From a virus (lineage: Duplodnaviria; Heunggongvirae; Uroviricota; Caudoviricetes), in IMG/VR virus record IMGVR_UViG_2695420613_000009: 18,889 bases of DNA. One strand, written 5' to 3'. Made by a program: the position numbers. Shown here piece after piece: positions 6,001 to 9,000 of this stretch (the stretch's first letter is position 1; each line of letters starts with the position of its first letter).

Positions 6001-9000
6001 TTACGAAGGTTCCGGCTCTGGCGACTGGCGCACGAGTGGCGTTACTGCTGGCATTGGCCTGAAATTCTGACCTGTATCCGGTAACCGTTTACTACCCGCT
6101 GTGATGGCGGGTTTTTTATTGCCCGTACAGGGCAAAAACCGTAAATTATGCGTGGGTGCCTTTCGGCTGATGGCTGGAGGGTGAACCTGAAGGCCTGATG
6201 TGGAAAGGCCCCGAGTCAACTTAACGTTAACCCGAGGCCCTAACACTTCGTACCTTAAGCAAGTAGAAGGTTAGCGCCTCTCTGTAAAAGGAGTCAAGCG
6301 CTATGTCGCAAAAATCGCTTATCACCGTCACAATTTGCATGACGGTTATCTTCACCATCTGGATGTTGCACGGTTCACTGTGTGAGTTCCGGCTGAATTT
6401 GTGGGGAGCGGAGTTTGCGGCGTTCTTACAGTGTAAGCAGTAGGAAAACCGCGACGGGGACGAGAGTCCCCGTCAACTGGTTGCTGAGGTTCAGCCGATA
6501 TGGCACCCGTTTCAGGTGAGAGAATGAACGATAAAATTCTCTGGTATATGCAGCGTGTTGTGAGAAATTCCCGCAACCCTGAATTTATGAATGAAGTTAA
6601 AGACGCCTGCCTTAAAAAGCAGGCGTTTTGTTTTGAGGCACCTGATGGCTTTTTGGTGCTGCGTTCTGTGCTCAGTGCTGATGGTATCCCTTATGTTCTG
6701 GTGTTGCTGGGCGTGTGTACGGGGAGTAACAGCGTTGAGCGTTACCTGCCGGAGGTGAAGACATTAACCCATCTGGCTGGCGGACGCTGGGCTGAGTTCC
6801 ATACGGCAAGGCGGGGATTTATCCGGCTGGGAAAACGACTGGGCTTTGAGCGAATGCCGGATGATGAGGATGGCTTCATGGTGTTCAGGATAGCGGTCTG
6901 ACTGCTACAGTTTTCATCATTGTGTTTAAACCAACATTGTAATTCACATTCTGACCCTGCTCCGGCAGGGTTTTTTGTTATCCAGGGGGCCATTATGGGT
7001 GGAAGTAAAGGCGGTGGTGATACCAAAGTAAAACCAACAGCAGCGCAAATAGCACAGGAAGAAGTGGCCTGGAAAGGGTGGCAGGATTACAAAAATATCC
7101 TCCGCCCGGCTGAAGATAACTTCATGGAAAAGGTCGATGACCTGAACAGTGAGCAGCAGTACGACAATATTGCTGGCACCACAAATCTGGGGTATCAGAA
7201 ACAGTTTGGCGAAGCACGGAAGGAGCTTGCGGGTAATCTTGCTCAGTCCGGCGTTGACCCATCCAGTGGTCGTTTTAATGCGGTAATGAATGCGAACCAG
7301 AGTGACCAGGTAACCGGGCAGATTGACACAACCACACGGGGGCAGGTATCGCAGGCAGATAAGTATGTTGCCGGGCTACAGGATGTTGCTGCTCTCGGTT
7401 CTGGTCAGAAGGCGGATGCGTTACAGAGTTTTAACTCTCTGGCAGACAGCAGTCTGGCAAAAGCTAAATCGGATGCACAGGCGGCGTTTACGAAACAGCA
7501 GGGGCGAGCCTCTCTTGTTGGCGCTGGTCTGGGTGCGGCAGGTGCATATGCGATGCATAAGGCTGGCGGTAGCGGAGGAAGTGGCGGTGCTAAAACACCT
7601 GGCACCGGCGCTAATGCCATTCAGCATCAGGCTCAGAACTGGAGACTGTAATTATGGAGTATGGCAAATACGAAACTCTCGCAAGGGCTGGTTATTCAGG
7701 AGCAGACCGCCCACAGGGTGACTGGCAGACGTCAGCAGCGCTGACACGCCAACAATACGACGACTGGCGAACCAGATATTTGCCCCGCGTGGCAAGGCTG
7801 GCTGACCTTGGGGAGAACAACAGTCTGATGAATGCACAGCTTGCACGGGTGGGAGGCCTTGCCACTTCCAGTCTCCGTACAGCGCAGATGGCGCAGGATA
7901 ACCAGATGGCGAGATACGGGGTAAACCGCCCGGATAATCCCGACAGTAATACGCTGGGGTTACGTAATGCCCTGGCAATTGCTGGCGCGAAAAATGGTAT
8001 CCGTGAAGCCGAACAGGATCGCCAGATGAATATTCTGACGGGGGCTTCTGCACCGGCAAGACAGAAACTGAGTGTTGGCGGCCAACTGGTGGCAGCGTAA
8101 GGGGGCAATATGGGATACGGTTTACTGGATATTGCAAATCAGTCGCGGCGTGAGGCATTACAGGGAATAAGTGACGCAGACAGACGACGTGAAGAAATTG
8201 AGGCTGCGAACAAACAGATGGCGGCGCAACAGAAAGCGCAGAACAAGCAGAATATCGGTACGGGCATTGGTACGGGGGCGGCTATTGGCGCATCCGTTGG
8301 TGGTCCTGTTGGTGCTGTTGCTGGAGCAGTAATTGGCGGCATTGCTGGTTCTTTGTTTTAAGGAGTGGTGAATGAGCGGATTTGCACAGGGGTTACTTGC
8401 CGGATTCAGCACCGTTGACCAGGCAATGACCCGTCGTAAGGAGCTTGGTCTGCGTGAAGCACAGCTTGCCCGGCAACAGAAAAATAACGAGCGCGATTTT
8501 GAGTTTGCGCAGTCTCAGTTTGAACATAATAAAAACGTTGATCAGCGGAACTTTGATTACAGAGCCAAAGTTGACGACCGTAATTATGCACTGAAGGAGA
8601 GGGAGTTTAACGCTAACCAGAATTACCGGAATGCGTCACTGGGTATGGAGCAGCAGCGACTCCAGTTGCAGAAATACAACCAGCGACGGCTTGAGTATAA
8701 CGATATGATTGCCCATAGCCAGCCACTAATGGAAGCGCTTGGAAAAGCAATTGAGGCTGGCGATCAGGAGGCTGCAACGCGTCTGTTCGGGCAGCTGCCA
8801 AAGGGACATCCATTAATTCTTATGTCAAACGAAGGCTATGCAGCGAAAGCGGGTCAGGCCGTGATCAACCTGCAAAAAATCTTTGGTGATAAGCCGGACA
8901 TGGCGATCGATTCGCTGAATACCCCGGAAAATCTCGATGTGCTTTCCGGCGTGTTTGCCCCGGAACTACAACAGCGTATTGGCATGCCTGATTCAACCGG

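Follow-up and report, generated by a model that had tools for sequence, protein, structure and literature searches.

A small open reading frame (ORF) between the hok gene and the virion genes of a Shiga toxin (Stx) phage is the subject of this analysis. The DNA is the IMG/VR virus record IMGVR_UViG_2695420613_000009, and its whole stretch of 18,889 nucleotides (nt) is called the window here. The window is a Stx phage of the 933W/Sp5 type: in this region it shows 100% identity with 933W, with VT2-Sakai/Sp5, and with many more Stx phages that belong to the Sepvirinae. The small gene corresponds to L0129 of 933W, to ORF75 (ECs1237) of Sp5, and to vb_24B_43 of phi24B, which is 98% identical. The product of L0129/ORF75 is named "hypothetical" in every annotation source. 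The open frame runs on the + strand from 6500 to 6901 and encodes 133 amino acids (aa) from the annotated ATG at 6500, or 125 aa (6524-6901) from an in-frame ATG at 6524, just 5′ of which stands GGTGAGAGA. The first-pass annotation of the window had given 126-133 aa; the upper figure holds, but the internal start yields 125 and not 126. The start at 6524 is preferred because the alignment with PHROG 610 begins at residue 9 of the 133-aa form and because the homologues in Salmonella, Yersinia, Pectobacterium, Dickeya, and Serratia, which are 119-125 aa long, start at or near that residue. Thus, the ATG at 6524 is likely to be the true start.

Upstream of the small gene lie lom (5336-6070), which is followed by a terminator of its own (6094-6112), and then hok (6303-6443). 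Downstream, a tightly spaced block of virion genes begins at 6995. The first-pass annotation had described a small ORF with its own terminator between lom/hok and the virion block, and the ORF, the terminator stem (6953-6972), and the flanks were all confirmed.

Of 5426 complete E. coli genomes, 419 carry the small gene. Among cultured phage genomes, tblastn recovered it only from the Sepvirinae and from one Aeromonas phage, always as "hypothetical", and a repeated homologue search with a 90-sequence profile brought no new product names. There are 59 close homologues, and an exhaustive profile search widened the family to 211 clusters at 50% identity, nearly all of 115-140 aa. Pairwise dN/dS (the ratio of nonsynonymous to synonymous substitution rates) has values of 0.08-0.18 for E. 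coli variants compared with each other or with Salmonella; comparisons with Yersinia and Pectobacterium, at a dS of about 1.4-1.9, give 0.22-0.29. Loss of coding conservation, which the first-pass annotation had named as a point to check, is spoken against by this range of 0.08-0.29: ORF75 does code for a protein, and purifying selection acts on it. It had also been stated that no family was recognised. This is true of Pfam, NCBIfam, and PADLOC, but PHROG 610, a family of unknown function, matches the protein over its full length (E = 2.6e-70).

Several natural variants of the gene were seen, in L068/L104 (IMG/VR 2721755653_000006), E. coli 06-00048 (H60), L169, and L016 among others. In one kind, an insertion of about 2.4 kb follows codon 73; the copy in L169 carries a frameshift, and strain 2013C-3181 has lost five residues (DGIPY) in frame. 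In the metagenomic loci L012 and L013, the GNAT-like domain forms the C-terminal half of a 256-aa protein with the same cassette downstream, and the N-terminal part of that protein has a weak DUF4376 match. The E. coli-type loci L038-L042 have about 1.6-1.8 kb extra between hok and the small gene; in L038, for example, hok lies at about 6728 and the small gene at 8528.

The small gene and the ejection cassette

Five genes follow the small gene on the + strand. The ORF76/L0130 homologue (6995-7651) is a virion protein of 218 aa with the N-terminus MGGSKGGG, and the ORF77/L0131 homologue (7654-8100) is a virion protein of 148 aa. The ORF78/L0132 homologue (8110-8361, 83 aa) begins with MGYGL and has a glycine-rich hydrophobic C-terminus. 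The ORF79/L0133 homologue (8372-9637, 421 aa) is an essential virion protein. The last gene is that of the giant polyvalent protein ORF80/L0134 (9707-18088), which has 2793 aa from the ATG at 9707 and 2806 aa from an ATG at 9668.

In prophages of Yersinia kristensenii, Pectobacterium, and Salmonella, the genes that come immediately after the small one encode an ORF76 homologue of about 200-225 aa, an ORF77 homologue of about 127-133 aa, an ORF78 homologue of about 79-91 aa, an ORF79 homologue of about 438-460 aa, and then a giant protein of 2660-2780 aa with MuF_C, LPD, and ART-PolyVal domains. This gene order is kept in family members just 20-33% identical, including metagenomic ones, and the stop and start codons often overlap. 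In a tblastn survey of about 90 loci, the five downstream homologues were present at essentially every locus with enough flank, and lom and hok were seen in E. coli phages and, differently ordered, in Salmonella, and nowhere else. When 80 loci were retrieved independently via ORF79 homologues, 77 of them had the small gene 1.4-2 kb upstream on the same strand; one of the remaining three has a truncated flank and two are rearranged. Several lineages leave 0-8 nt between the small gene and the ORF76 homologue. The E. coli and Salmonella types have 56-94 nt there, with a terminator, and a Yersinia type has about 250 nt, with a different terminator and a small hydrophobic ORF. In the latter (L003, 8376-8630, and L074-L085), the strong hairpin reads GAAAGCCCCGA...TCGGGGCTTTC and the hydrophobic ORF has about 39 aa; this insertion occupies the same junction as the E. 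coli terminator.

The G+C content of the small gene (0.50-0.54) is like that of the downstream block, and that of lom is 0.35-0.46. A simple scan upstream of the small gene found no sigma-70-like promoter. Because the same downstream neighbours are present in lineages without lom and hok, the small gene is not a moron like these two. By this comparison of loci, it ancestrally heads a conserved cassette of six genes, into which lom and hok were inserted. The first-pass annotation had taken it for an inserted accessory gene expressed in lysogens, which is contradicted by the cassette synteny, the G+C content, the absence of a promoter from the scan, and the embedded hairpin described below. It had also proposed to check other prophages for hok or lom as conserved neighbours; the conserved partners turned out to be the ORF76-80 homologues, and lom and hok are confined to E. 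coli and Salmonella.

Published mutants and virion proteomes cover this cassette. In-frame deletions of Sp5 late genes were made by Mondal et al. (PMC5155283), who give primers for an individual ORF75 deletion. ORF75 is outside their nine essential mutants, two mutants of reduced infectivity (ORF64 and ORF76), and three mutants of increased yield, and its deletion impaired neither plaque formation nor lysogenisation on K-12 (PMC5155283). ORF79 and ORF80 are essential, with DNA-filled heads in their mutants, and deletion of ORF76 lowers infectivity (PMC5155283). Thus, ORF75 is dispensable on K-12. Bubenchikov et al. (bioRxiv 10.64898/2026.04.10.717836) searched purified phi24B virions against a six-frame ORF database and found gp47, gp48, an 86-aa ORF, gp50, and gp51. 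Of these, gp47 is the giant protein, which is abundant and is proposed to be an ejection protein, and the ORF78 homologue was seen at a low level (bioRxiv 10.64898/2026.04.10.717836). Even the contaminants Lom and Q were detected in this preparation, and the protein list contains no forward-strand ORF from 45981-46382 (bioRxiv 10.64898/2026.04.10.717836). Six tryptic peptides of the small protein were also looked for, and none of the six is in the available part of the phi24B peptide list. The small protein is non-structural, and its five downstream neighbours are virion components. Clear homology to a structural or assembly protein was among the outcomes that the first-pass annotation had named as refuting its view; a structural role for the small protein was rejected on the published virion proteomics and the ORF75 deletion data.

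I compared the N-termini of the cassette proteins at 15 diverse loci. The ORF76 homologues begin with MGGSKGGG or MGKGGGS, the ORF77 homologues mostly with MGQASD or MGYASD, and the ORF78 homologues with MGYGL, so that a Met-Gly start is near-universal in ORF76 and ORF78 and frequent in ORF77. The ORF79 homologues begin with MS, MG, MA, or MD. At the most distant locus, L008, the four proteins start with MS, MA, MS, and MA. Glycine at position 2 is uncommon among bacterial proteins. Both ORF76 and ORF78 have glycine-rich hydrophobic C-termini; that of ORF78 is a glycine-zipper-like stretch, GTGIGTGAAIGASVGGPVGAVAGAVIGGIAGSLF, and the RefSeq name of this protein is "bacteriocin".

A terminator after the small gene and a terminator-like hairpin inside it

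The intrinsic terminator 3′ of the small gene, T2 (6953-6978, + strand), has an 8-bp stem with five G-C pairs at 6953-6972, followed by TTTTTTGTT. It folds at -16.5 kcal/mol (z = -4.2 against shuffles). T2 is kept in all E. coli variants, is shorter on both arms of the stem in a Salmonella-type lineage, and is missing where the small gene is directly coupled to the ORF76 homologue.

A second hairpin, T1 (6603-6634, + strand), lies inside the coding sequence. It consists of ACGCCTGC, an 8-nt loop, and GCAGGCGT, then TTTTGTTTT. T1 folds at -17.8 kcal/mol (z = -3.4), followed by UUUUGUUUU, and its stability is on a par with that of T2. It has the form of an intrinsic terminator, namely a stable G+C-rich stem-loop with an immediate U-tract. 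The peptide encoded by T1, D-A-C-L-K-K-Q-A-F-C-F, is the most conserved one in the Enterobacterales subfamily.

Synonymous sites were examined in 20 representatives less than 93% identical to each other. Codons 28-37 (GCC TGC CGT AAA AAG CAG GCG TTT TGC TTT) are virtually without synonymous change. The invariant residues V45, L46, P56, G86, G87, R88, T94, R96, G98, R101, and G107 each use three to six codons. Low-entropy codons make up 9 of 10 inside T1 versus 0 of 46 outside (Fisher p = 1.3e-9, not phylogeny-corrected), and a Mann-Whitney test on two-fold degenerate residues only gives p = 9e-4, likewise not phylogeny-corrected. Both Phe codons of the T1 tract are TTT in 20/20 representatives, while other Phe positions freely use TTC. 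In a 21-sequence alignment, 94.8% of the T1 cells pair, against 38-49% when the partners are slid, and one pair has changed from CG to AU on both sides in three distant lineages, which is a compensatory change. The homologues L008, L178, and L179, which are 29-33% identical, have a hairpin and TTTTTTGTTTG at the same codons with altered stems, and L181 has a different G+C-rich stem and a T-run at that position. These comparisons indicate that T1 is under selection at the nucleotide level and is shaped like an intrinsic terminator; it looks like one embedded in a gene.

Several terminators or terminator-like elements are found in this part of the late region, namely after lom (6094-6112), within the small gene, after the small gene, and before ORF80 (9670-9689). 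The last of these is part of a terminator-like hairpin with a T7 run at 9670-9697, in the first codons of the longest ORF80 frame (ATG at 9668). The 2793-aa start used by Mondal et al. (PMC5155283) is the ATG at 9707, and the hairpin probably serves as an intergenic terminator that separates ORF79 from ORF80. When 5900-7200 was scanned with Rfam, the outcome was a sub-threshold sok-like match and chance matches, and neither T1 nor T2 was matched.

Phages of the 933W type need antitermination by Q for their late transcription, and intrinsic terminators do not stop a polymerase modified by Q. T1 and T2 may therefore stop polymerase that is not Q-modified and that arrives from lom, hok, or stray promoters, and Q-modified late transcription would read through both. 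In the lysogen, un-antiterminated transcripts would be kept from the genes of the membrane-active proteins (ORF76/ORF78) and from the gene of the effector-laden giant protein. Since T1 would block read-through from lom and hok, upstream promoters are unlikely to drive expression of the small gene in lysogens. The intrinsic terminators that flank morons of lambdoid late operons are likewise G+C-rich hairpins with U-tracts and are expected to be read through under Q. Unlike them, T1 lies inside a coding sequence, is conserved at the nucleotide level across genera, and dictates the codons of the most conserved motif of the protein.

A predicted minimal GNAT fold and its possible function

The first-pass annotation had noticed a faint resemblance to GNAT-type (Gcn5-related N-acetyltransferase) acyltransferases and had thought the protein short for that fold. 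The resemblance is borne out by structure prediction and by Foldseek, and the length is no obstacle: the modelled protein is a minimal GNAT fold, the core without beta1. AlphaFold2 with a 33-sequence alignment gave a pLDDT (predicted local distance difference test) of 90.5 and a pTM (predicted template modelling score) of 0.80. The predicted order is helix-helix-strand-strand-strand-helix-strand-helix-strand, with the GNAT topology of an antiparallel beta2-beta3-beta4 sheet, alpha3, beta5 parallel to beta4, alpha4, and beta6. In Foldseek searches of PDB and BFVD, unnamed phage proteins of about the same size rank first among the viral matches, and annotated acetyltransferases come next; the best BFVD matches have 120-145 residues and template modelling (TM) scores up to 0.83. 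N-terminal acetyltransferases are numerous among the best structural matches. The window protein is a full-length member of PHROG 610 and resembles the small BFVD phage proteins; these have no known function, so that no mechanism is gained from them.

The conserved positions of the family are A34, F35, F37, and P48 on beta2-beta3, W61, A63, and S65 at the end of beta4, Y74 at the start of alpha3, and the beta5-alpha4 motif F92-x-T/S94-x-R96-K/R97-G98-F99-x-R/K101 ... G107-aromatic. GNATs hold coenzyme A (CoA) in the region that these positions surround. In the model, the three basic residues of the beta5-alpha4 motif could bind the CoA phosphates, and a GNAT-fold protein with cofactor binding and catalysis is plausible.

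The reading favoured here, with a probability of roughly 0.45, is that the small gene encodes a late-expressed, non-virion protein of minimal GNAT fold and is the first gene of a cassette of four small virion proteins and a giant ejection protein. The small protein would be made late, stay in the infected cell, and work on or for its cassette, presumably as an accessory acyl- or acetyltransferase acting late in infection. On the model, it falls a little short of an even chance that the ORF75 protein catalyses such a transfer. The substrate would probably be a cassette protein before packaging or, less likely, something that conditions cassette proteins. That the enzyme does have a cassette protein as its substrate is nevertheless doubtful.

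A number of observations weigh against this reading. Pfam, NCBIfam, and PADLOC scans of the protein gave no match, a Pfam scan of 90 relatives gave no acetyltransferase family and just scattered chance matches, and profile searches of PDB sequences with 33- and 90-sequence alignments found no GNAT. When the family was compared by hhalign with E. coli RimI (a query identical to PDB 5isv), the probability was 0.2%. The motif A loop Q/R-x-x-G-x-G/A between beta4 and alpha3 is replaced by C-T-G-S-N-S, in a loop shorter than that of RimI. In 90 representatives, the loop reads S-x-x-G-(N/D)-A, with Gly in 26/90 and Ala or Gly at the last position in 51/89. The alpha4 Tyr position, in a RimI register set by eye, is Gly in the window protein and Ala in 54/90 relatives. 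No Glu, His, or Tyr is conserved among the 90 relatives as a catalytic candidate; E91, for example, is kept in 38/90. Many GNATs are without the alpha4 Tyr or the beta4/beta5 Glu/His. Because the ORF75 deletion has no phenotype, any modification made by ORF75 is not needed on K-12. In the available part of the phi24B peptide list, the N-terminal peptide of gp48, the ORF79 homologue (SGFAQGLL...), occurs only unacetylated, and N-terminal acetylation had been searched. This is the only cassette N-terminus among those listed peptides, with none from gp49-51; the same part of the list has four N-acetylated peptides, of which three are human keratin and the fourth could not be located. As for T1, the synonymous-site tests ignore phylogeny, the distant homologues L180, L010, and L176 have no clear hairpin at the T1 position, and its terminator function is inferred from sequence alone.

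Compared with RimI, Naa20/Naa10, and Ard1, the window protein is without beta1 and the C-terminal beta7, is 6-17% identical, has a short beta4-alpha3 loop that departs from the motif A consensus, and has no alpha4 Tyr; profile-level similarity of its family to these proteins is not detectable. GNAT modules have been tied to large polyvalent proteins in prophages of gammaproteobacteria (Iyer et al. 2017, PMC5512222). These domains, found within or solo beside polyvalent proteins, likewise lie near late structural genes, but they have RimI-like sequences and are believed to enter the cell with the virion (PMC5512222), whereas the window family has no sequence link to them and was undetected in virions. 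The profile of the window family found no second copy within the giant ORFs.

One specific form of the favoured reading is that the acyltransferase modifies the phage's own ejection proteins before packaging, at the Met-Gly N-termini or at lysines of ORF76-78, for insertion into the envelope. A modification of N-termini is suggested by the usual Met-Gly starts of ORF76-78 and by the many N-terminal acetyltransferases among the structural matches; the unacetylated gp48 N-terminus among the listed peptides and the degenerate CoA loop speak against it, and this form is quite improbable. The toxin-activating acyltransferases HlyC/ApxC offer a possible analogy, since there too a small gene of acyltransferase fold stands directly upstream of that of a large membrane-active protein, which it serves. 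ApxC/HlyC is absent among the structural matches listed for the window protein.

If the protein has the fold but not the activity, it might be an assembly chaperone or scaffold that loads the ejection proteins into the procapsid and is then left behind, as is thought of P22 gp14 and T7 gp13, small non-virion genes ahead of ejection or core genes. The strictly conserved position, the overlap of its stop codon with the start of the ORF76 homologue, the absence of the protein from virions that contain its neighbours, the degenerate CoA-loop motif, and the lack of conserved catalytic residues would all fit. A required chaperone, however, should copy the phenotype of its clients; the phage cannot do without ORF79 and ORF80, and its infectivity falls when ORF76 is lost, yet no defect was reported for the ORF75 deletion, and the conserved basic and polar residues cluster at the GNAT CoA site. 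A chaperone is therefore unlikely. The dispensability, together with the fold, would also suit a host-directed acetyltransferase for counter-defence or takeover that matters only in hosts with a matching system. A model for this is AcrVA5 (PDB 6iuf), a 92-residue anti-CRISPR GNAT on mobile elements that is 16% identical to the window protein and whose target is Cas12a. It differs in that the window gene sits in the late virion operon, coupled to ejection-protein genes. A protein made from the late operon and not packaged would come too late to shield an incoming genome, the linkage is to the conserved core of the cassette rather than to variable effector domains, and no PADLOC or anti-defence family was matched, so that a host target appears rather improbable.

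The idea of a stand-alone moron, inserted with lom and hok and supplying the lysogen with an accessory or conversion factor, draws on the E. coli phages, in which the gene has non-coding DNA on its flanks and a terminator after it and adjoins two bona fide morons; it is dispensable, and some prophages carry a copy broken by insertion or frameshift. It is largely contradicted by synteny, as the same neighbours follow at 0-8 nt in lineages without lom and hok and co-occur at 77/80 loci. The G+C content like that of the virion block, the upstream scan without a promoter-like site, and T1, which would abort read-through, make it highly improbable. Foldseek also matched the GNAT toxins GmvT, TacT, and AtaT (E about 1e-3), which would point to the toxin of a toxin-antitoxin pair that acetylates aminoacyl-tRNA. 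The window protein is smaller than these toxins and just 14-17% identical to them, and its synteny is with virion genes. Its neighbours are hok and the virion protein ORF76, and this barely credible candidate was dropped for want of an adjacent antitoxin gene.

The hok region and the meaning of the cassette

Some observations were made on the region between lom and the small gene. A "microRNA-size" phage RNA, 24B_1 (phi24B 45711-45692), aligns to 6229-6210 of the window on the minus strand. Its reported promoter boxes, TTGACT at 6297-6292 and CGCTAACCT at 6276-6268, are likewise on the minus strand, a short way upstream of the start codon of hok (ATG at 6303). This is the position where the Sok antisense RNA of a hok/sok locus is expected, and Rfam gives a sub-threshold sok match at 6154-6316; hok goes unmentioned in both 24B_1 papers. 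The published 24B_1 deletion spans 6102-6292. Lost with it are most of the hairpin that forms the lom terminator (6094-6112), the leader of hok, and the promoter of the antisense RNA; the hok ORF stays. The phenotypes of the 24B_1 deletion may reflect a disturbed toxin-antitoxin locus. Just past the hok stop codon, at 6452-6475, there is a 10-bp G+C-rich hairpin that has no T-run on the + strand and is terminator-like on the minus strand. It may be the 3′-terminal structure of the hok mRNA.

The gene itself has long been listed as a hypothetical ORF, and no paradigm is overturned. What is new is the divergent minimal GNAT fold, as predicted, with its degenerate CoA loop, the definition of the gene as the head of a cassette, and the embedded terminator-like element. 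One caution follows, in that the "most conserved motif" of the protein is partly an RNA constraint: about 30 nt read both as protein and as a terminator-like hairpin, constant across genera. The Stx phages are of medical importance, and for half of their late region there is no explanation so far. For a gene that databases call "hypothetical", the predicted fold gives a testable biochemical hypothesis. The ejection cassette of 933W-type podoviruses and their relatives in Enterobacterales is redefined: it comprises six conserved genes, and lom and hok were inserted later. If ORF76-78 were acylated, this would be a bacterial-virus counterpart of the myristoylated VP4 of picornaviruses or of the RTX toxins activated by HlyC. 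If T1 is an insulator, it would explain how prophages hold expressed morons beside potentially toxic virion genes.

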